Part shown: positions 2,662 through 60,920 of the stretch, one piece after another
Position numbering within the stretch: the stretch's first letter is position 1
Layout of the letters: every line of letters starts with the position of its first letter
Virus record (IMG/VR): IMGVR_UViG_3300031993_000018
Location: 89,614-153,613 of that record
DNA: 64,000 bases
Reading direction: 5' to 3' (one strand)
From: a virus
Taxonomy: Duplodnaviria > Heunggongvirae > Uroviricota > Caudoviricetes
Made by a program: the position numbers and the translations under genes
The notes under the pieces: model-generated
What the model was told of the DNA's origin: nothing
Seen by the model: the letters and a program-made list of their open reading frames with translations, nothing else
The model's database searches: none

Positions 2662-3792
2662 ATGCAGATTATAGACAATGTACAACTTGACTTCAGTGAT
2701 GTTCTCATTAAACCCAGGAGGTCAAGTATTGATTCGAGAAGTAAGGTAGATATTACCAGGGAGTACAAATTCAAATGGTGTCCATATAAAATCACAGGTA
2801 CTGGTATTATGCAGGCCAATATGGGAACCATAGGTAACTTTAAAGTGAGTGAGAAACTGTTGGAGAATGGTATGTTTGCTTGCCTTCACAAATATCATGA
2901 TACTGACAAACTGATTGATTTCTACAAGAAACTCATCCACAAAGGTGACGGAAGTATGAGAAGATGTCTCCTTGCAATAGGATTGAGAGATAATGGTATT
3001 GAGAAACTGAGGGAAATAAACAAGGCAACCGGTGAACAGATTGGTGTGAAGTTTGATGTTCCCAATGGATATATTCCCCAGGTAAAGGAAAGAGTCATTG
3101 AACTCAGGAAGGAGTTTCCAGATATGTTCATTATGGTTGGTAATGTGGTTACTGGTGATATCACAGAAGACCTGATTCTGTCAGGTGCAGACTGTGTTGC
3201 AGTAGGTATCGGTAATGGTGCCCAGTGTCTCACAAGAAGACAGACAGGTTGCGGAAGACCACAGTTCTCCGCTGTCGTAGAGTGTGCAGATGCAGCTCAC
3301 CAGGTCGGAGGTATGGTTTGTTCTGATGGTGGTATCACCTGTCCTGGAGATTTGGGTAAGGCATTTGGTGCCGGTGCGGATTTCATTATGATAGGAAGTC
3401 TGTTTGCAGGAACTGATGAGGCAGATGGTGAGACTGTTGAGAAGTATGTCTTCAATGGTGAGTATGACAAAATATTATATAATCCTGGTTATGTGTTTGA
3501 TCCCCATCTTGATAAGAAACAGTTCAAACAGTTCTATGGTATGAGTTCAACTCTGGCCCAGGAAAAGTTTGGTAATGGTAAACCCAGTTACCGTGCGAGT
3601 GAAGGTCGTGTAACTCTGATGCCTTATACAGGATCTGTTTGTGATGTGATTGAGGAACTCCTTGGAGGATTGAGGTCAACAATGACTTATATAGGTGCAT
3701 GGAAACTCAAGAATATTCCTAAACAGTGTGTGTTCTATAAGGTTCACAACCAACTGAACCAGACATATGAGAGATTTACAGTAGGTAAATAA
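2662..3792 (+). CDS. guaC: GMP reductase (IMPDH/GMPR family)
   Basis: N-terminal LDFSDVLIKPRRSS and the motif GADCVAVGIGNGAQCLTRRQTGCGRPQFSAVVECADAAH...SDGGI...GADFIMIGSLFAG match E. coli GuaC almost motif-for-motif, including the catalytic Cys loop. Confidence 0.85.
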   Translation: MQIIDNVQLDFSDVLIKPRRSSIDSRSKVDITREYKFKWCPYKITGTGIMQANMGTIGNFKVSEKLLENGMFACLHKYHDTDKLIDFYKKLIHKGDGSMRRCLLAIGLRDNGIEKLREINKATGEQIGVKFDVPNGYIPQVKERVIELRKEFPDMFIMVGNVVTGDITEDLILSGADCVAVGIGNGAQCLTRRQTGCGRPQFSAVVECADAAHQVGGMVCSDGGITCPGDLGKAFGAGADFIMIGSLFAGTDEADGETVEKYVFNGEYDKILYNPGYVFDPHLDKKQFKQFYGMSSTLAQEKFGNGKPSYRASEGRVTLMPYTGSVCDVIEELLGGLRSTMTYIGAWKLKNIPKQCVFYKVHNQLNQTYERFTVGK

Positions 3793-4788: not shown

Positions 4789-5889
4789 ATGTATTTATGT
4801 ATGAATAAGAATTTTTTAGAAGATTTTTTGAAGACTTACAGACCTTCAGGGTTTGAACAGGAAGGTGCTGAAGTGTTTGTCAGTAATGCCTGTGGACTCA
4901 AAGGAGTCAAGAAAGAGTTTATTGATAAGATGTGGAATGCATGTGTGAGTGTGGGTAGTGAAAAGGAGGATGCACTGAAAATCCTCATCTCCGGTCACTC
5001 TGATCAGAACTGTCTCATTGTGACTGAAATCACAAAGAATGGTTTCCTCAAGTATGCAACCCAGGGTGGATTCTCTCCAAGGACAGTAATTGATTCAGAC
5101 CTCTTTGTCATCACAAACAATGATGGTGTGAAGAAACTTATCCCCTGCTTCTGTAGTTATAAAGCAATACATATAGAAAAACCGGATGACAGAAAGAAAT
5201 GTCCAGAACATAAGGATCTCTATCTTGATTTGGGATGTACATCCAGGGAACAGGTTGAGAAACTCGGTGTACATATAGGTGACCTGGTTGTATTCAACAA
5301 CAGTGGTCTGAATATGGACTTTGGTCCTGATGGCAACTACATTGTAGGTTCAGGTCTTGATGATGGTGTTGCTTGCGGAATCGTTTATGATGTCCTGAAG
5401 AAACTTGATGAGAATGAACTCAAGGAGATGAACATCAGGGTATATGGTGCATGCATCACATCAGAGGAAACTGGTGCCAGGGGTGTTGGTCCTGTAGTAA
5501 GAAAGGTTCAGCCACATATCTCCATAGATATTGATGTATGTCATGACTGCACCAAGGAGATTGGTGAGGATGAAGGCCGGATTGCAAAGATGGGTGATGG
5601 TGCTGTCCTGAACTATGGTCCTGACAAATACAGACCTCTCAATGAAGACTTGAGACAGATTGCAAAGGATTATGACATCAAGTTGCAACTCATTGCCGGC
5701 AAGGCAGGAGGTACAAACACCAACAACATCCAGATGATGTCAGACAACTGTGCCACAACCCTGTTGAGTATCCCTTGCAGATATATGCACAGCGGAACAC
5801 ATGAGATGGTCAATAAGGATGACATTGATGGTTGTGGTCAGCTCATATACAAGTTCATCAACAAGGTAGATCCAAAGAAGTATGTATAA
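4789..5889 (+). CDS. M42-family metallopeptidase (glutamyl aminopeptidase / cellulase-M like)
   Basis: Segments GHSDQNCLIVTEITKNGFLKY, GSGLDDGVACGIV, ITSEETGARG and RYMHSGTHEM line up with the conserved metal-ligand blocks of M42/FrvX peptidases. Confidence 0.6.
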   Translation: MYLCMNKNFLEDFLKTYRPSGFEQEGAEVFVSNACGLKGVKKEFIDKMWNACVSVGSEKEDALKILISGHSDQNCLIVTEITKNGFLKYATQGGFSPRTVIDSDLFVITNNDGVKKLIPCFCSYKAIHIEKPDDRKKCPEHKDLYLDLGCTSREQVEKLGVHIGDLVVFNNSGLNMDFGPDGNYIVGSGLDDGVACGIVYDVLKKLDENELKEMNIRVYGACITSEETGARGVGPVVRKVQPHISIDIDVCHDCTKEIGEDEGRIAKMGDGAVLNYGPDKYRPLNEDLRQIAKDYDIKLQLIAGKAGGTNTNNIQMMSDNCATTLLSIPCRYMHSGTHEMVNKDDIDGCGQLIYKFINKVDPKKYV

Positions 5890-14823: not shown

Positions 14824-15373
14824 TTCCAAATCCCTACATTACCAACTTTGTCTGGAAGGTGCCAAGTGGTTACATAGGAAAAAGAATGACTACAAGAAGT
14901 GCCCAAATAAAGACTGTCACTTGAAGTTCTGCCGGAACTGTGAGACTTACGATTACGTTGCGGTGGAACTCTGTGTATATGGTGCAGAGAACACTGATGT
15001 ATGGGGTTACTCATGTGGAAGTCATACCAGTGCAGTCATTGAAGTAAAGACATCTCATTCCGATTTTCTGGCAGATCAGAAGAAATGGTGGAGAAGTAAG
15101 GAAGCAGAGAATGGTGGGTTCCAGGCTGGACAAAGGAGATGGTATCTATGTCCGGAAGGTGTCATCAAACCTGATGAACTTCCCGAGGGTTGGGGACTTC
15201 TTTACTGGGATGGCAAGAAGGTATATCATGTGGTGAATCCTGTTATGACAGACAGGAAAACATCCAGGGCAGATATGATAATGCTGACATCTATATTGAG
15301 GCGAGAGAATTTCCCCAAGAAGATTTACAACTACAGATACACTAATCCAAATTTCCAAAATGATTTGGAATAA
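14804..15373 (+). CDS. Hypothetical protein, possible PD-(D/E)xK nuclease fold
   Basis: An ordered VAVEL ... TDVWGY ... AVIEVKTS pattern resembles the E / D / ExK motif series. Confidence 0.3.
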   Translation: MLKTMSDSKSLHYQLCLEGAKWLHRKKNDYKKCPNKDCHLKFCRNCETYDYVAVELCVYGAENTDVWGYSCGSHTSAVIEVKTSHSDFLADQKKWWRSKEAENGGFQAGQRRWYLCPEGVIKPDELPEGWGLLYWDGKKVYHVVNPVMTDRKTSRADMIMLTSILRRENFPKKIYNYRYTNPNFQNDLE

Positions 15374-15506
15374 CAAGAAAAAATCATTATCTTTGTAATG
15401 GAGAAATAATGTTTAAGAATATGTGGATAGTATTATTACTGTTGATTGGATTGATAGCTTGCCTTTGGAAAGGTGAAGGTAGTAAGTAATTTTAAAAAAT
15501 ATAATT

Positions 15507-22373: not shown

Positions 22374-22406
22374 ATTTGTTGGTTCAGATTTTTTTATTAT
22401 CTTTGT
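22374..22406 (+). promoter_or_regulatory. Bacteroidetes sigma-AB type promoter (TTTG, then 19 nt, then TATCTTTG)
   Basis: aaaaaaTTTGttggttcagatttttttatTATCTTTGtaatag, upstream of the gene at 22427. Confidence 0.55.
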
Positions 22407-22426
22407 AATAGAAATAGAAAGGATTT

Positions 22427-27860: not shown

Positions 27861-28388
27861 ATGAATGATTTTAAGAAAATAGTTTTCCTGGATATAGATG
27901 GTGTATTGGCATCCATCCAATTCTTGTGTGATCATCCCAAGTCATCAGGAATTGATCCGGAAAAGTGTAAACTCCTCAACACCCTTTCTGAAATAGGTGC
28001 TGAAATTGTCATATCCTCTTCCTGGGGACACGACAATGGCAGAACTGAAAAGACATTGAGACAATGTGGGTTGACCCTTCCAATCATAGGTTACACCCAA
28101 CATTTTTCCCAGGACTGGATATGTAGGGGTAATGAAATTGAGAAGTGGTTGACAGAGATGTATGGTGGTATGGGTACCAAGTTTGGTTACGATTGCGATA
28201 CGGGTGAACCATACTACAGGGAACACTTTAGTGATAATGATGTTGATTATGAGTATGTTATCTTTGATGATGACACTGATTTCCTGCTTGGACAAAAAGA
28301 CAACTTCATCAAAATAGATGAAAAGACAGGTCTGACAGAAGAGGACATCAACAAAGCAATTAAGATACTTACAAGAAGTGGCGAATAA
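27861..28388 (+). CDS. HAD-superfamily phosphatase (HAD_SAK / polynucleotide-phosphatase-like)
   Basis: Motif I VFLDIDGVL followed by a short ISSSW block, as in the HAD domains of Swiss-army-knife RNA repair proteins and PNKP phosphatases. Confidence 0.5.
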   Translation: MNDFKKIVFLDIDGVLASIQFLCDHPKSSGIDPEKCKLLNTLSEIGAEIVISSSWGHDNGRTEKTLRQCGLTLPIIGYTQHFSQDWICRGNEIEKWLTEMYGGMGTKFGYDCDTGEPYYREHFSDNDVDYEYVIFDDDTDFLLGQKDNFIKIDEKTGLTEEDINKAIKILTRSGE

Positions 28389-28401
28389 ATTTCGCCATTT
28401 T

Positions 28402-28433
28402 TTTTTTGTTATTTCAAAAAAATATATTATCTT
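28402..28433 (+). promoter_or_regulatory. Sigma-AB type promoter (TTTG, then 19 nt, then TATCTTTG)
   Basis: TTTGttatttcaaaaaaatatatTATCTTTGtaatag, preceded by hairpin terminator GGCGAAtaaatTTCGCC. Confidence 0.55.
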
Positions 28434-28457
28434 TGTAATAGATATAAACAAACAGAT

Positions 28458-35502: not shown

Positions 35503-35916
35503 ATGAGTATCTGGGGTGATATGCTTGACCGGGGAACCGGTGAAAAGATAAAGAAGGAGGATCTCATTGCCGATCCACTGGGGACACTTGAAAAAAGTGT
35601 TATAGTGTATATAGGACCTGTGGACAGAACAGTGTTTCCCACAATGCCGGCGGAAAAAGGACAACTGTACTATGTAAAGGATGAGGTAACCATTGAAGGT
35701 GTAACCTTTCCAGCAGGTTCAGGTATAGTCTATGATGGAACCAAGTGGGTAAATGTAGGTGGTTACACTGTTGAAAGGGTAGATGCCAATATCGATTACC
35801 TTAAACCTGATTCTGGTTTGGAATATATCCCTGAGCCGCCGCGAATTACAATAGCAGCATATGACGATGACGGAGTATATGTACCAAAGTCAATAGGATG
35901 GAAAAATAATTTTTGA
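35503..35916 (+). CDS. MSIWGDMLD-leader family member 4
   Basis: MSIWGDMLDRGTGEKIKKEDLIADP...; 137 aa. Confidence 0.6.
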   Translation: MSIWGDMLDRGTGEKIKKEDLIADPLGTLEKSVIVYIGPVDRTVFPTMPAEKGQLYYVKDEVTIEGVTFPAGSGIVYDGTKWVNVGGYTVERVDANIDYLKPDSGLEYIPEPPRITIAAYDDDGVYVPKSIGWKNNF

Positions 35917-35945
35917 TTAATCAAGAAAAATCATTATATTTGTAA
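35916..35945 (+). promoter_or_regulatory. Sigma-AB type promoter (TTTG, then 19 nt, then TATATTTG)
   Basis: TTTGattaatcaagaaaaatcatTATATTTGtaag, upstream of the nucleotidyltransferase gene. Confidence 0.5.
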
Positions 35946-35968
35946 GAGAAGAGACATTTAATCTTATT

Positions 35969-37288
35969 ATGAAACTAACATTAGAGAATATTACAATCAA
36001 AGACCACAAGATTTATGACCCGGAAGGAAACTTCAGGGGAGAAATCTTGTATGAGTACATTCGTGGTTCTCATCTGTATTCAACCAATGTGGAGACATCA
36101 GATGAAGACCAGGGAGGTATCTACATTATGCCTAACAGCACCATATTGGGTCTTGGTCTTGACTATCAGAATGAGATAAAGGATAAGAGTAATGACAAGT
36201 GCATCTGGGAGTTGGGAAGATTCCTGGAACTTGCCCTGTCTTCAAACCCAACTGTCCTGGAGGCACTCTTTGTTCCTGGTGATAAGGTCATCTATGAACA
36301 TCCTGTCATCAAGGAGATCCGTTCACACCGTGATGAGTTTATCACCAAGAAGTGTTTTGCACCATTTGGAGGTTATGCTTCAAGTCAGATAAAGAAGGCT
36401 CAGGGTCAGAACAAGAAGATCCACTGGGATATTGCCCAGATGGTAAGGAAGACTCCTATGGACTTCTGTTATACCTTGAAGAACCAGGGTAGTCAGCCTA
36501 TGCAGGACTGGTTGGATGAAAGAGGACTTGATCAGAGAAACTGTGGTCTGGTCAATATTCCCAATATGCCTGATATGTTCGGTGTGTATTATGACTGGGG
36601 TCAGCACATCAGACTTGCCGGTATCACCAAGGAGTATTTCACCAATAAGGAGAATTACTACAAGGATAAGTTTATCAAGACTATGGACATGTATCTTGGA
36701 AATGAATATATCCTCCATGAGGATGGAAACCTTGAGGATGAACTTGAATATATCTGGGATCATCACTCTGAACCTCATGGTGGTTACTGTGGAATCATCT
36801 CACCCAATGAGGATTCCAACACAGTAAGGTTCTCTTCTGTTGTCAAGGGTGAGAAACCCATCTGTTATATGTCTTACAATGCCAATGCATATATATCACA
36901 TTGTAAGGAGTATAGGGAGTATGAGGACTGGAAGGAACACAGAAATCCAGCAAGGTATGAATCCAATATGGAGGGAGAGAAGTCAGGCAATGCAGATATG
37001 AAATATGACTGCAAGAATATGATGCACTGCTTCAGGTTGATGGCAATGGCAAAGGAGATTGCAGAAGGAAAGGGTGTGATCCTGGATCGCGCTGGTATTG
37101 ACAGGGAGTTTCTCCTGGATGTTAGAAACCGTAAGTATGGTTATTCTGAACTCCAGAAGAAGATGCTTGACCTGAAGGATGAGATGGATGCTGCCATTGA
37201 GAAATCTACCATCAAGGATGAGATTGATCCCCAAATGGTCAATGACCTCCTCCTGGAAGCAAGAAAACATTTTAATTCAAAAGATTAA
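35969..37288 (+). CDS. Pol-beta superfamily nucleotidyltransferase (GSHLYST...SDED motif)
   Basis: Near the N-terminus, IRGSHLYSTNVETSDEDQGG fits the GS...(S/T)D.D nucleotidyltransferase active site. The ~440 aa protein probably carries a helical substrate-binding extension. Confidence 0.5.
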   Translation: MKLTLENITIKDHKIYDPEGNFRGEILYEYIRGSHLYSTNVETSDEDQGGIYIMPNSTILGLGLDYQNEIKDKSNDKCIWELGRFLELALSSNPTVLEALFVPGDKVIYEHPVIKEIRSHRDEFITKKCFAPFGGYASSQIKKAQGQNKKIHWDIAQMVRKTPMDFCYTLKNQGSQPMQDWLDERGLDQRNCGLVNIPNMPDMFGVYYDWGQHIRLAGITKEYFTNKENYYKDKFIKTMDMYLGNEYILHEDGNLEDELEYIWDHHSEPHGGYCGIISPNEDSNTVRFSSVVKGEKPICYMSYNANAYISHCKEYREYEDWKEHRNPARYESNMEGEKSGNADMKYDCKNMMHCFRLMAMAKEIAEGKGVILDRAGIDREFLLDVRNRKYGYSELQKKMLDLKDEMDAAIEKSTIKDEIDPQMVNDLLLEARKHFNSKD

Positions 37289-38266: not shown

Positions 38267-39112
38267 ATGTATTTCAAAAACCTAAAAGAAAAGTGCGAAT
38301 ATTACCGTTCGCTTACTGATTATAAACTGATGTCAAACTCTTATGTCCTGGTGATGGTGGATGGTCACTGTTTCAGCAAGATGATCAAGAATAAGTTTGA
38401 CAAACCATTTGATGATGAGTTCATCAATATGATGAATGAGACTGCAAAGTATCTGTGTGAACAGGTACAGGGAGTTAAGTTTGCATACACACAGTCTGAT
38501 GAGATTTCACTTCTCATCACAGACTTTGACACACCAGTAACCGATGCATACTTTAGTTTCAGACTCTGTAAGATGCAGTCACTCATTGCTGCACTGGCAA
38601 CTGCCAAGTTCAACCAGTTATATGCCATCCATAACATTGGTAAGGAAGTGAGTGGTGGCAGCAACAAGATTGAACTTAAGAAGACTATTCCACTCTGTAC
38701 ATTTGACTGTAAGGTATGGACTGTTCCAAATGCAAATGACGCCTATGCCTGGTTCCTCTACAGACAGACTGACTGTATCAAGAACTCAAAGGCACAGACA
38801 GCCCAGACATATCTTCCACACAAACAGTTGGTGGGTCTGACAGCAGATGATATGATTGCCAAACTCAAGGATGAGCAGAACATTGACTGGTATGAGTTTG
38901 TCAATGGTAAGAAGTATGGAAGACTCATCAGGAAAGTGGAGACTCCTATGGAGAAAGACCTTTCCAATGGACTACACATTGAATACATAAGGAATGTATG
39001 GACACCTGTTGAGATAACAGACTTGAGAGAGGATGGGTCACAAGTGAGAGATCTGATTCCTGAACTGTTCAGACCTGGTGTTAATATAAAAGAAGAAATC
39101 ACAGAAGAATGA
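38267..39112 (+). CDS. Thg1-like protein (tRNA-His guanylyltransferase family 3'-5' nucleotidyltransferase)
   Basis: YVLVMVDGHCFSKMIKNKFDKPFDDEFINMMNETAKYL and FAYTQSDEISLLI parallel the Thg1/TLP N-terminal catalytic blocks (R.DGR.FH.F...KP.D....M...A...AYG.SDE.S..L). Confidence 0.65.
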   Translation: MYFKNLKEKCEYYRSLTDYKLMSNSYVLVMVDGHCFSKMIKNKFDKPFDDEFINMMNETAKYLCEQVQGVKFAYTQSDEISLLITDFDTPVTDAYFSFRLCKMQSLIAALATAKFNQLYAIHNIGKEVSGGSNKIELKKTIPLCTFDCKVWTVPNANDAYAWFLYRQTDCIKNSKAQTAQTYLPHKQLVGLTADDMIAKLKDEQNIDWYEFVNGKKYGRLIRKVETPMEKDLSNGLHIEYIRNVWTPVEITDLREDGSQVRDLIPELFRPGVNIKEEITEE

Positions 39113-40219: not shown

Positions 40220-40280
40220 TTGCTGCGATAGCGGTTGCGACAATAAAAAAGAGGGTGAATGATTTCATCCTCTTTTGTTT

Positions 40281-40577: not shown

Positions 40578-40668
40578 GTTGTATGTGTTTATTATAAAAT
40601 ATTTATGTGAATATTTGGATATTTCAAAAAAACATATTATATTTGTAGTAAGAATAAAAATATAAACT

Positions 40669-41127: not shown

Positions 41128-41336
41128 CGGACGATTACGAACGACAAAATAAAAGGCATTATGTTTTATATTTATAAAAAGAACTTGAACACAGGCAAGT
41201 CCTCATTCTTTATGAAGACTGCTGATAACAAACTGGCTGAGTCCAGGATTAGGGAACTGAATGCCGAGTCATTGTATGATGATGAGTACTACTACATTTC
41301 AGAGACACCTATCAATGGTTAAAAAATCTAAAAATA

Positions 41337-41368
41337 TTTGGTAGTATCGATTTTTTGTTTTATATTTG
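41337..41368 (+). promoter_or_regulatory. Sigma-AB type promoter, extended conserved form (AAAATATTTGGTRGT...TATMTTTGTATCAGAAAC)
   Basis: aaaaatatTTGgtagtatcgattttttgtttTATATTTGtatcagaaacc. The same extended motif occurs at 50791..50840, 54341..54390 and 60851..60900. Confidence 0.55.
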
Positions 41369-41937
41369 TATCAGAAACCAAAAACAATAAACAATTATGA
41401 ACGACGATCAACTCTTCATAGAGGTATTCAGGAACTTCCAGGAACATTATTATGGTCTGGATATGAGAGGTACACTTGTTTATTACAAGGGTGAGTGTAA
41501 ATTCAACATAGAGGGTTACAACCTCTGTTATAATCTCCTCCGACTCACAAGGATGCTTGAAGAGGCTGGAGAACTCAGGTAACAACTTAAAACATCAAAA
41601 TTATGAAACTTATCAATGTAAATGACAGAGATGGGGATACTTACATAATCAATCCCATCCATGTGGAGGAAGTCAAAGTCACACGTTCAAGTCACAATAA
41701 TGACTGGTGTATTGTGATTTCCGTTGGGGAGAACAGGACACACACAATCTTGTGTCATTCAGAATCAGAGAAGGACAAACATGTTCTTGAAATCAATGCA
41801 GCAATGGAGTCAATTTCTTAATCCTGACAACTATGAACTGGACAAATTTTTGGTTGTTCCTCATTGTACTTGTACTTTATGGAATAGGGGATGAAATCCA
41901 TAAGTTGAACAACAAAAACAAAGACTAATTTGAGATT

Positions 41938-43471: not shown

Positions 43472-43593
43472 ACCTTGCGGTCACGACCTTACGAAAGATG
43501 AAGAAACAAAAAATCTTCATCTTTTTTTTCATTTTTATTTGGTAGTTTCAAAAAAAACCTTTATATTTGTAGTGTAAATCAAGTAACAAAGTT

Positions 43594-50719: not shown

Positions 50720-50858
50720 AACGGTTGCGACAACGAAGCACGAATCACCAATTCCAAAAGGAGTTGGTGATTTTTTTGTTAAAAAGTACGAAAATATTTG
50801 GAGGTATCAAATATTTCTTGTATATTCGTGACAGAAACCAATAAGAAAGAGGGTATAT

Positions 50859-51357: not shown

Positions 51358-52197
51358 ATGGTTATAAATTACACCAACCTTAATGAGAACATCAACATCT
51401 ATTTCAAGGAGATCCGCAACTTCGCATCCCTGACAAGAGAAGATGAGGTAAGACTGTTCTCAAGAATCAAGACAGGTGACAAGTCAGCACAGGCTGAAAT
51501 CTTCAACAGGATGGCCAAGCTGGCGGTCAACATTGCCAAGACATACACAGGTGATGCAGACCTTTTGGAAGATCTCATCCAGGAGGCAAACATTGGTATC
51601 CTTACCGCCATTGACAAGTTTGACCTCAATTCCGGTTTCAGATTTTCATCATATGCCCGTTACTGGATGAAGGCCGCCATTTCCAAGTATCTTGATGAAA
51701 TGGGTGTGGTACGTCACTGCAATCCCCATCTTGTTGACCTGGCCAACAAAATCCGTGAGAAGTTCTACAAGGAGAACCAAAGGGATATCACCAGTGTGGA
51801 ACTGATGGATATGTTGGAGGATGCAGGTGAGGTGGTTGATGACATCAAGTCAATCACCAGCATCACCAATGTGAGGATTGATCTTCCTTATGATTGTGAT
51901 GAGTCCGGAAAGCCAAAGGGCGAATATGGAGACTTCGCAGACCGTACTGCCTGTGACAATGGGTTTGTAGAAAAGGAAAGAGCCGAGGAACTTTCAGAAG
52001 ACATCAGACGAAGACTCTCAAGACTCACTCCGAGGGAGCAGCAGTTGGTCCTGTTGATGTACGGTTTCGTCACCGGAGAAGAAATGGGTTATGACGCTGT
52101 TACAGAAAGGTGGAATGAAGGTAAGCCCGAGAAGGAACAGCTCACACAGGAGAGAGTCCGTCAGATCATCAAGGGTGCACTCAAAAAGATGAAGTAA
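51358..52197 (+). CDS. Sigma-70 family RNA polymerase sigma factor
   Basis: Region 2 LLEDLIQEANIGILTAIDKFDLNSGFRFSSYARYWMKAAI (compare DLIQEGNIGLMKAVDKFD...F.TYA.WWIRQAI); region 4 LTPREQQLVLLMYGF...ERVRQIIKGALKKM. Confidence 0.7.
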   Translation: MVINYTNLNENINIYFKEIRNFASLTREDEVRLFSRIKTGDKSAQAEIFNRMAKLAVNIAKTYTGDADLLEDLIQEANIGILTAIDKFDLNSGFRFSSYARYWMKAAISKYLDEMGVVRHCNPHLVDLANKIREKFYKENQRDITSVELMDMLEDAGEVVDDIKSITSITNVRIDLPYDCDESGKPKGEYGDFADRTACDNGFVEKERAEELSEDIRRRLSRLTPREQQLVLLMYGFVTGEEMGYDAVTERWNEGKPEKEQLTQERVRQIIKGALKKMK

Positions 52198-54277: not shown

Positions 54278-54346
54278 TATGAAACCTTGCGATAACGACC
54301 CGCGATAAACCCTTTGTGTTAAAAAGTCTAAAAATATCAGGAAATA

Positions 54347-54378
54347 TTTGGTGGTTCCGAAAATATATTGTATCTTTA
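54347..54378 (+). promoter_or_regulatory. Sigma-AB type promoter, extended conserved form
   Basis: gaaatatTTGgtggttccgaaaatatattgTATCTTTAcatcagaaac. Confidence 0.5.
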
Positions 54379-54400
54379 CATCAGAAACAAGAAACAAAAA

Positions 54401-55115: not shown

Positions 55116-55147
55116 TTTGGAATATCCGAAAAGATCCATTATATTTG
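55116..55147 (+). promoter_or_regulatory. Sigma-AB type promoter (TTTG, then 20 nt, then TATATTTG)
   Basis: aataaTTTGgaatatccgaaaagatccatTATATTTGtaatg. Confidence 0.5.
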
Positions 55148-55500
55148 TAATGTAAGGGAATAAGATATGAAGAAAAGATTCAATGTTATCAGACAGGTCC
55201 TCGTCACAACAGAGGACATCTGGGAGGCAGAGTCAGAACAGGAGATCCTGGACAGGCTTGAGGATGGAACATCACTTGCCGGGGAAATATCTCTCTTGGG
55301 ACTCAAGTCAAGACCGGGAAGGATTGTCAAGTATCAGTTCCCGACTGATCCAAAAGTAAAAGAGTTAAATAAACCGTTGTGATGTTGTTTTAAGTCCTAA
55401 AGATTCATACCGCAATCATCAAAAATAAAATATTGATTATTACTTTTAAGAATCTTGTTAATCCGCTTTAAGACAACATCACAACATAAAAATCAAAACA

Positions 55501-60476: not shown

Positions 60477-60856
60477 AATGTTGAGGTGGATTATAGAGTC
60501 CCCCATATATTACTGTGGAGGTTGTACACCGGAGGAGGTTACCTGTGCGGGATGTGCCATAATGAAGATCCTGAAGGCAATGTTTCTGGACATATTCCAG
60601 GAAACAGTGTCCTGATTCTCAAGTTACAATTGTCCAATTTTGTCCGATTCCCATTGCAAATCACTCATCACCAGATGTTTAGATCAATTCCCAATAATGA
60701 GTGGTTGTCTGATAATCGGACAAAGTATCCGGACATAAATCAAGTCAGTGTGTCTAAATTCTCAATACCAAAATGAGTATTTAGACACATTTTTCTTGCG
60801 GTGACGGACTGCGAAAAGAAAATATTGAAAATATTTTCAAAAAAGTTCCCAAAATA

Positions 60857-60888
60857 TTTGGTGGTTTAAAATAAAACCGTTATCTTTG
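60857..60888 (+). promoter_or_regulatory. Sigma-AB type promoter, extended conserved form
   Basis: aaaatatTTGgtggtttaaaataaaaccgtTATCTTTGtatcagaaagg. Confidence 0.5.
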
Positions 60889-60920
60889 TATCAGAAAGGA
60901 ACAATAAAGACATAACAATT

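Follow-up and report, generated by a model that had tools for sequence, protein, structure and literature searches.

Repeated promoter boxes of the sigma-ABfr type in a jumbo phage of Bacteroidota and the long consensus that they share with related phages

Phage-encoded sigma factors define known classes of phage promoters, such as those dependent on gp28 and gp33/34 in SPO1 and the gp55 late promoters of T4. Upstream activator sites are another known arrangement, as in phi29, where the p4 site is centred near -82 of the late A3 promoter. The subject of the present analysis is a promoter box that recurs five times in a stretch of 64,000 nucleotides (nt), here called the window, which covers positions 89,614 to 153,613 of the IMG/VR virus record IMGVR_UViG_3300031993_000018 (Caudoviricetes), together with the larger promoter family to which the box belongs.

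The canonical sigma-ABfr promoter consists of TTTG at -33 and TAnnTTTG at -7 (Bayley et al. 2000, cited in PMC7366714). The -7/-33 motif is also seen in the transcription start site map of B. thetaiotaomicron, where the modal 5′ untranslated region measures 23 nt (PMC7366714), and translation in Bacteroidota proceeds without Shine-Dalgarno sequences (PMC6847099). The early promoters of T4 are read by the unmodified host RNA polymerase and display “additional regions of consensus” beyond their UP, -35, TGn, and -10 elements (PMC2988021). T4-type phages also contain composite conserved promoter-terminator motifs, called PeSL (PMC2839356, PMC4122927). Group 2 jumbo phages encode RpoD-like sigma factors and no RNA polymerase of their own; it is assumed that they divert the core enzyme of the host (PMC7824862). 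In the literature searched, the transcription programmes of Bacteroidota phages, and of jumbo phages especially, are essentially uncharacterised.

The window contains 11 promoters of the -33/-7 type on the coding strand, referred to as family A, and the five copies flagged in a first-pass annotation are the most alike among them. These boxes are best read as near-optimal promoters of the sigma-ABfr type, which would be used by the host RNA polymerase carrying the host primary sigma factor; a probability of roughly 55% is assigned to this reading. The strict pattern TTTG-N18-21-TAnnTTTG has nine occurrences on the + strand and a single one on the - strand, where 0.57 would be expected in the 64-kb window, and two near-matches, with -7 elements at 50821 and 54371, complete the set of 11. 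The spacing from the -33 TTTG to the -7 box is 19 or 20 nt at all 11 sites, and 13-32 nt separate the -7 box from the ATG, or 28-32 nt in the case of the four exact boxes described below. The A-rich leaders have no Shine-Dalgarno sequence, and those of the four exact boxes are unstructured. The boxes are found at operon boundaries, in many cases immediately 3′ of an intrinsic terminator. Most genes headed by family A are small and of unknown function; the others encode a sigma factor, an RlaP-family protein, and a YodL-like protein. E. coli-type -35/-10 consensus sequences are not enriched in the window (54 versus 50.5 expected, 62 versus 73.7, and 75 versus 66.2).

The repetition of the box is borne out by a pattern search, since TTTGGWRGT-N15-TATMTTYRYRWCAGAAA has four exact + strand matches (41337-41377, 50797-50837, 54347-54387, and 60857-60897) and none in 100 dinucleotide-preserving shuffles, even at two mismatches. 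All five copies, anchored on ATTTGG, align without gaps. The spacer of 17 nt given earlier needs correction, as GGTRGT and TAT are 15 nt apart. The boxes do carry the Bacteroidota grammar, as had been claimed, and they lie on the gene strand; two of them have a degenerate -7 element (TATATTCG-TGACAGAAAC at 50821 and TATCTTTA-CATCAGAAAC at 54371, each one base off TAnnTTTG). The copy at 43538, described as weaker, indeed shares only the upstream half; it has TTTGGTAGT and a perfect -7 box, and TAGTGTAAATC replaces TATCAGAAAC. Six simpler promoters listed in the same annotation were all found again, with the TA of the -7 box at 15388, 22398, 28428, 35935, 40638, and 55140.

Among the four exact copies, the -33 block is the most conserved (89% identity), followed by the -7 box (79%) and the start region (74%), and lower values are seen for the leader (53%) and the spacer (47%). 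The first genes 3′ of the boxes are mutually unrelated and are not paralogues. A recent cassette duplication is ruled out by these nonparalogous genes, the low spacer identity, and the block-specific conservation. An RNA element in the leader is likewise ruled out, because no Rfam family matches at or near threshold and the four leaders fold no better than shuffles. The UP-like region of box 3 (54318-54346) contains a 10-nt ATATCAGGAA-like insertion relative to boxes 1 and 2; as this length equals one helical turn, the phasing of the upstream A-tracts would be kept.

The presence of the pattern in bacterial chromosomes bears on the host. In 596 Gb of prokaryotic genomes, the extended pattern was found in 17 contigs, 16 of which are Bacteroidota, mostly rumen Prevotella/Prevotellaceae metagenome-assembled genomes. 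Together with the unenriched E. coli consensus and the A-rich leaders without Shine-Dalgarno sequences, this supports the Bacteroidota host proposed earlier, and the proposal is sound. The chromosomal copies precede ordinary genes, such as the one for D-Tyr-tRNA deacylase (dtd) in a Prevotella metagenome-assembled genome, where the phage sigma factor is absent. Several of them also have an upstream element, AAAAAAGT-N-AAAATA, which was not selected by the search pattern. The extended pattern is found as well in unrelated Bacteroidota-type viral contigs with a GC content from 27% to 49%. In a different large phage (L016:226-4950; IMG/VR 3300045988_163480, a 237 kb contig), a stretch of 5 kb contains four -33/-7 promoters, all with a conserved upstream element of their own, about 25 nt long (gATTAACnTTnATTAACTCAATAAA-TTTGGTA), and with the host-like TTTG-CA. 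A group of nine related viral contigs of 53-100 kb (L001, L004, L006-L008, L011, L012, L014, and L019; IMG/VR 3300045988) shares one orthologous extended box, TTTGGTRGTT...TATCTTTGCATCAGAAAAATAAAGAAAACAATATTAAT, which is followed by a conserved GC-rich stretch (..AGAACAGGGCGGCAACCT..). Phages of Bacteroidota may in general have a long promoter consensus that is specific to their clade.

A DNA-level search of deposited phages returned no match to the window, and a scan of IMG/VR with the single sigma protein gave none either. A scan of IMG/VR with a sigma profile retrieved relatives of 345 kb and 412 kb. The contigs of the sigma homologues are syntenic with the window, and several come from samples labelled rumen or ruminant gut. 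By this synteny and the size of these relatives, the window is to be regarded as part of a jumbo phage, whose full genome probably exceeds 200 kb, so that the window would be only 64 kb of the total.

The long consensus was derived from 65 nonredundant sites in the window and about 12 syntenic jumbo-phage relatives. Outside the search-defined core, and against the promoters' own AT-rich composition as background, these sites carry 30.8 bits, a value which belongs to the wider family and not to the five copies alone, compared with 1.6 ± 0.2 bits in within-sequence shuffles. The approximately 20 extra positions reported in the first-pass annotation are therefore enriched well beyond A+T bias; they are the consensus of the whole family, however, and do not mark a separate class. 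One long architecture is common to every -33/-7 promoter of the relatives, namely, aaaaAAGTGnAAAAAAA-TTTGG-nnnn-TC-(A7 or T7)-nnnn-TATCTT(T/C)G-TA-(TC, GTG, AT, or CC)-AGAAA(A)G. The family-wide extras comprise A-tracts with AAAGTG, TTTGG, a spacer with TC and a homopolymer, TATCTTTG-TA, and an AGAAA start.

The sequences establish the architecture itself, its enrichment, strand, and position, its conservation in about 12 relatives, and the absence of any discrete subclass, while the reading holoenzyme, the point of initiation, and the timing are inferred. The A-tracts from about -60 to -37, which are phased and contain a conserved AAAGT(G), would act in the manner of an UP element. An extended -33 (TTTGG) lies downstream of them. 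A 20-nt spacer, in which a conserved TC precedes a 7-nt A- or T-run, separates it from the -7 box, (T)TATMTTTG, and the invariant TA that follows. Transcription is predicted to begin at the A of C-A-GAAA or G-A-GAAA, which is +1 if the TA of the -7 box corresponds to -12/-11. The transcript would have an A-rich leader of 19-27 nt, in which there is no Shine-Dalgarno sequence and little structure is predicted. The short operons of small unknown genes and the phage sigma gene have the layout of “early” phage promoters, which out-compete those of the host. As the core is a perfect sigma-ABfr promoter, the host holoenzyme is expected to bind, and very strong host-sigma promoters resembling the early promoters of T4 are the most likely interpretation.

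Several points weigh against this interpretation. The base 3′ of the -7 box is T in 63 of the 65 clade sites, whereas at Bacteroidota chromosomal loci it is C in 20/26 and T in 3/26 (p=3e-16), and at sites of other Bacteroidota-type viral contigs it is C in 20/25; judging from these counts, the clade departs systematically from the host-like consensus at the discriminator position. The host-locus promoters sampled (only 14 sites) lack the long consensus and have little beyond TTTG-CA. Furthermore, the clade encodes a full-length RpoD-like sigma factor, in which the E-R-x-R-Q recognition helix of region 4.2 is invariant. It is possible, though rather unlikely, that RNA polymerase with this phage sigma reads family A, either in preference to the host holoenzyme or alongside it. 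Phage and host promoters would then be told apart by three clade-specific features (the T 3′ of the -7 box, TTTGG, and the conserved spacer), and the sigma operon would reinforce itself. The sigma protein has hundreds of homologues of 50-70% identity on long viral contigs and is conserved, under a family A promoter, in all fetched relatives; among its 60 listed PDB matches there is no obviously Bacteroidota-sized primary sigma. Its invariant region 4.2 helix suggests that a -35-like element is probably part of its target, and in the window such an element is offered by family A alone. The H/E residues of region 3.0, which read TG, are not conserved. The residue equivalent to Q437 in region 2.4 is Ala, and the readout at -12 may be altered as a result. 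Group 2 jumbo phages are believed to divert the core enzyme of the host in such a way (PMC7824862). On the other hand, the core matches the host consensus perfectly, and the host holoenzyme should bind regardless; the sigma gene itself must be transcribed earlier by something. Most of the extended features are shared by chromosomal promoters and by promoters of unrelated phages, and the T may simply be the optimum of the host's own enzyme or an AT-rich discriminator favouring open-complex stability. The targets of the sigma factor, late promoters for example, may also lie elsewhere in the genome.

Two other explanations concern the reason for which the boxes resemble each other. According to the first-pass annotation, the flavour GGTRGT...TATCAGAAAC could form a class of its own, temporal or regulatory (e.g., middle genes), with an extra factor contacting those positions. 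Two flavours can in fact be recognized: one has GNRGT-TCG-T7-TTG before the -7 box and TAYCAGAAAC after it, and the other has GATAAT-YCA-A7 with TAGTGAGAAAAG. Their features co-vary over the 65 sites (U-D p=0.02, E-D p=0.006, and U-E p=0.009), but these values are uncorrected and the sites are related by descent and not independent. GNRGT is conserved within orthologous groups in a permutation test (P=0.0006), while the start-region flavour is not (P=0.08). A near-invariant 40-nt version, TTTGGTRGTCTCGTTTTTTTGTTGTATCTT(T/C)GTAYCAGAAACAA, is found in several relatives. Nevertheless, all combinations of the features occur, the flavours swap at orthologous promoters (e.g., the MSTTNY group), and AGAAA is the start in both, shifted by 1 nt. 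The four exact boxes have 24 invariant noncore columns, compared with 16.1 ± 4.1 in random family quartets and 11-33 in the best quartets of single relatives, and are no tighter than the latter. The coupling of GGWRGT to CAGAAA is not significant in the window (p=0.14) or in the first 19 sites from relatives (p=1), and it is weak over all 65 sites (p=0.02). The TGCGR array described below is also independent of the flavour (all p>0.6). Since the extras belong to the whole family, a distinct subclass is unsupported and this explanation is very improbable; we conclude from the sites compared that the GGTRGT/CAGAAAC flavours are two preferred spellings of one family.

It is scarcely more probable that the modules are conserved mainly as recombination cassettes, similar to PeSL, which homologous exchange would homogenise while shuffling small genes; in that case, the conserved length would exceed the needs of transcription. 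Terminator and promoter do form composite units between small open reading frames, as described for PeSL (PMC2839356, PMC4122927), and the genes 3′ of orthologous modules vary among relatives. The pre-sigma promoter, for instance, is separated from the sigma gene by 0, 1, or 2 small genes, or by an extra promoter and a gene of 254 amino acids (aa). Conservation is position-specific, however, with divergent spacers and leaders and preserved functional blocks. Orthologous promoters retain these blocks across genomes whose sigma proteins are only 52-70% identical, and such persistence points to selection on function. Exchange of this kind is, moreover, compatible with reading by the host sigma factor.

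The coordinates of the promoters and associated elements are collected in the table.

Table. Promoters and associated elements in the window (positions in the window; aa, amino acids; dG, predicted free energy)
Feature	Position	Strand	Details
Box 1, family A promoter	41318..41380	+	UP-like GTTAAAAAATCTAAAAATA 41318-41336; -33 TTTG 41337-41340 (TTTGGTAGT); -7 TATATTTG 41361-41368; predicted +1 A 41373 in CAGAAAC; first gene ATG 41397 (61 aa)
Box 2, family A promoter	50778..50840	+	UP-like GTTAAAAAGTACGAAAATA; -33 TTTG 50797-50800 (TTTGGAGGT); weak -7 TATATTCG 50821-50828, TG before; predicted +1 A 50833; operon of 68 aa, 70 aa, then sigma gene
Box 3, family A promoter	54318..54390	+	10-nt insertion (GTTAAAAAGTCTAAAAATATCAGGAAATA) in UP-like region; -33 TTTG 54347-54350 (TTTGGTGGT); weak -7 TATCTTTA 54371-54378, TG before; predicted +1 A 54383; first gene ATG 54411 (189 aa)
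Box 4, family A promoter	60836..60900	+	UP-like TTCAAAAAAGTTCCCAAAATA; -33 TTTG 60857-60860 (TTTGGTGGT); -7 TATCTTTG 60881-60888; predicted +1 A 60893; first gene ATG 60921 (76 aa)
Box 5, partial copy, family A promoter	43538..43580	+	-33 TTTGGTAGT 43538-43546; -7 TATATTTG 43562-43569; start region TAGTGTAAATC; YodL-like gene, ATG 43594
Family A, “simple” flavour	15364..15400	+	TTTGGAATA...TTATCTTTG-TAATGGAGA
Family A, 19-nt spacer	22375..22412	+	TTTGTTGGT...TTATCTTTG-TAATAGAAA
Family A, 19-nt spacer	28405..28442	+	directly 3′ of terminator 28373-28403
Family A	35912..35950	+	heads RlaP-family gene, ATG 35969
Family A	40614..40652	+	TTTGGATAT...TTATATTTG-TAGTAAGAA
Family A	55116..55154	+	TTTGGAATA...TTATATTTG-TAATGTAAG
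RpoD/RpoS-like sigma factor	51358..52197	+	full-length, 279 aa, regions 1.2-4; operon headed by box 2
TGCGR array	43476..43494	+	TGCGGTCACGACCTTACGA; 4 nt 3′ of Dam stop codon; 62 nt upstream of box 5 -33
TGCGR array	50726..50743	+	TGCGACAACGAAGCACGA; 6 nt 3′ of upstream stop codon
TGCGR array	54288..54305	+	TGCGATAACGACCCGCGA; 10 nt 3′ of upstream stop codon
TGCGR array	60797..60814	+	TGCGGTGACGGACTGCGA; 20 nt 3′ of upstream stop codon
Intrinsic terminator-like hairpin	43498..43529	+	GATGAAGA...TCTTCATC and T-run; dG -9.9; between array and box 5
Strong intrinsic terminator-like hairpin	50742..50773	+	14 bp and T-run; dG -20.6; directly upstream of box 2
Family B sites	716, 2629, 4764, 6785, 9993, 11476, 13410, 42592, 48417, 58399, 59236	+	

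An additional regulator had also been postulated for the boxes. An extra cis element does exist, but it is a different one, consisting of three TGCGR-type repeats that lie upstream of four of the five boxes (box 1 has none) and of about half of family A. This TGCGR array is GC-rich and contains three direct RCGR units, 6 and then 7 nt apart (TGCGR-nn-RCGR-nn(n)-TGCGA). It follows the upstream stop codon directly, at a median distance of 6 nt. Its exact form TTGCGRnnRCGR is present four times on the + strand of the window, against about zero expected. Across the clade, the array accompanies 31/65 family A promoters, compared with 2.8% of random gene-strand windows and 0/27 family B junctions. 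The composite of array and promoter is restricted in IMG/VR to three contigs, namely, the 412 kb relative (6), a 248 kb relative (2), and a 5 kb fragment. A terminator hairpin stands between array and promoter at 21 of the 31 array-bearing sites; in the window, hairpins are found directly upstream of the boxes with -7 elements at 43562 and 50821 and not of those at 41361, 54371, and 60881. Where the hairpin is missing, 29-31 nt separate the end of the array from the -33 TTTG, and the array is centred at about -75. This near-fixed geometry suggests a candidate DNA site for an activator or repressor near -75. Its position before terminators would equally allow a role at the RNA level, e.g., in the control of read-through.

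A fifth TGCGR array, TGCGATAGCGGTTGCGAC, is located at 40224-40241 (+), directly 5′ of a terminator (40247-40276) and without a family A promoter within 120 nt. The next such promoter, at 40614, comes after a stretch which in relatives holds a small minus-strand gene. The same arrangement occurs at L041:3130, L045:214, and L040:6494. The site at 40614 has an orthologue in L041, and the sites at the corresponding position in L043 and L045 head an unrelated gene.

Just upstream of the sigma gene, a weak -7 box with TTCG for TTTG is found in the window (50821-50828) and at L038:9267, L040:9692, L041:7511, L043:8781/9113, and L046:9129, and TG often stands immediately before its TA. Orthology of these boxes, as judged by the first downstream gene, is confirmed only for window 50821 with L040:9692 and for L043:9113 with L046:9129. 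Their recurrence suggests selection for a particular promoter strength, either lower or regulated.

A second family of putative promoters, family B, has the form TTTTG-TTAT(A/T)TTTA(A) and lacks the -33 TTTG. Usually the T-run of a strong terminator hairpin leads directly into it. Its exact 10-mer TGTTATATTT occurs nine times on the + strand of the window and never on the - strand, against 0.03 expected, and in relatives it is conserved at the orthologous sites 5′ of the genes for Dam and the FKBP-type protein. In four genomes, the distance between the TG of family B and the ATG of Dam is invariably 15-16 nt, which suggests a leaderless mRNA if the transcript begins about 7 nt past TATATT. The genes under family B in the window encode enzymes (IMPDH-family, M42 peptidase, Dam, and FKBP); the division between small genes under family A and enzyme genes under family B would fit an early versus middle division. 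Family B (TG-T-TATATT) could be taken for an extended -10 promoter that the phage sigma reads, but this possibility is weakened by the lack of conservation of the TG-reading residues of region 3.0, set against the conservation of region 4.2. Families A (...CTTTGTATC...) and B (...TTTTGTTAT...) share TTTG followed by T(T)AT, where host promoters have TTTG-CA. The TTTG of family B is retained even without a terminator hairpin (716, 4764; L041:13351). No third AT-rich promoter motif was evident in the remaining intergenic gaps of the window.

All genes of the window lie on the + strand. The identifiable products, apart from the sigma factor, are one protein of the IMPDH/GMP-reductase family, an M42 peptidase, an SF1 helicase, RlaP, Thg1, a Dam methylase, a Band_7 protein, and a YodL-like protein. 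Four of these are auxiliary genes unusual in a phage: the IMPDH/GMP-reductase-family gene (2662-3792), the M42 aminopeptidase gene (4789-5889), and the genes for RlaP, an RNA-repair-associated nucleotidyltransferase (35969-37288), and for a Thg1-like tRNA-His guanylyltransferase (38267-39112). The last two are conserved in relatives. The only tRNA, and the only Rfam match in the window, is a tRNA-Ser with anticodon GCT (1149-1237, +).

The consensus of about 60 nt, supported by 65 sites in about 12 genomes, could provide a way to annotate operons in these phages and a strong, portable promoter design for the genetics of Prevotella and Bacteroides. The discriminator-position difference, the clade-restricted tripartite repeat, and the RpoD-like phage sigma are three handles on phage-specific control. 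If the host sigma alone reads the boxes, they would be a Bacteroidota counterpart of the T4 early promoters, a useful and unsurprising result. A self-contained circuit can also be imagined, in which the phage sigma would discriminate by TTTG-TA versus the TTTG-CA of the host, and a phage-encoded factor binding the TGCGR array, either near -75 or at the 3′ end of the upstream transcript ahead of a terminator, would switch about half of the promoters or terminators. This circuit is considered unlikely; if true, it would offer a first look at the takeover and timing of transcription by jumbo phages of Bacteroidota.

Compared with the known systems, the boxes are closest to the sigma-ABfr promoters. 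They have the same two cores, a spacing of 19-20 nt, an AT-rich spacer, and short leaders without Shine-Dalgarno sequences, and they lie on the coding strand upstream of genes. Unlike the host promoters, the phage sites carry about 31 bits outside the core and T instead of C after the -7 box, and about half of them have a TGCGR array. In their predicted behaviour they come nearest to the T4 early (“uber” UP/-35/TGn/-10) promoters, with which they share the full match to the host elements, UP-like A/T tracts, an extra consensus, and operons of small genes. They differ from these in their Bacteroidota instead of sigma-70 grammar and in the RpoD-like sigma, which T4 does not have. The PeSL are similar in layout, being short conserved units of terminator hairpin and early promoter, repeated between small variable open reading frames of a large, myovirus-like genome. 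In the present phage, however, the hairpin is found at only two of the five boxes and at 21/31 array-bearing sites, and the tripartite TGCGR array is additional. The presence of a phage sigma gene in one of the operons and of a second family without -33 recalls the phage-sigma classes of SPO1, T4 gp55, and the group 2 jumbo phages. In contrast to these, the boxes keep the host consensus and do not replace it, and nothing ties the sigma to family A or B. The TGCGR array resembles the p4 site of phi29 in its near-fixed upstream position, centred at about -75 when the hairpin is absent, but it is made of three direct units and not of an inverted repeat, and a hairpin often intervenes between array and promoter. 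On the sequence comparison as a whole, the boxes are promoters of the sigma-ABfr kind with three differences, namely, the clade-specific T after the -7 box, the TGCGR array, and the RpoD-like sigma factor of the phage.

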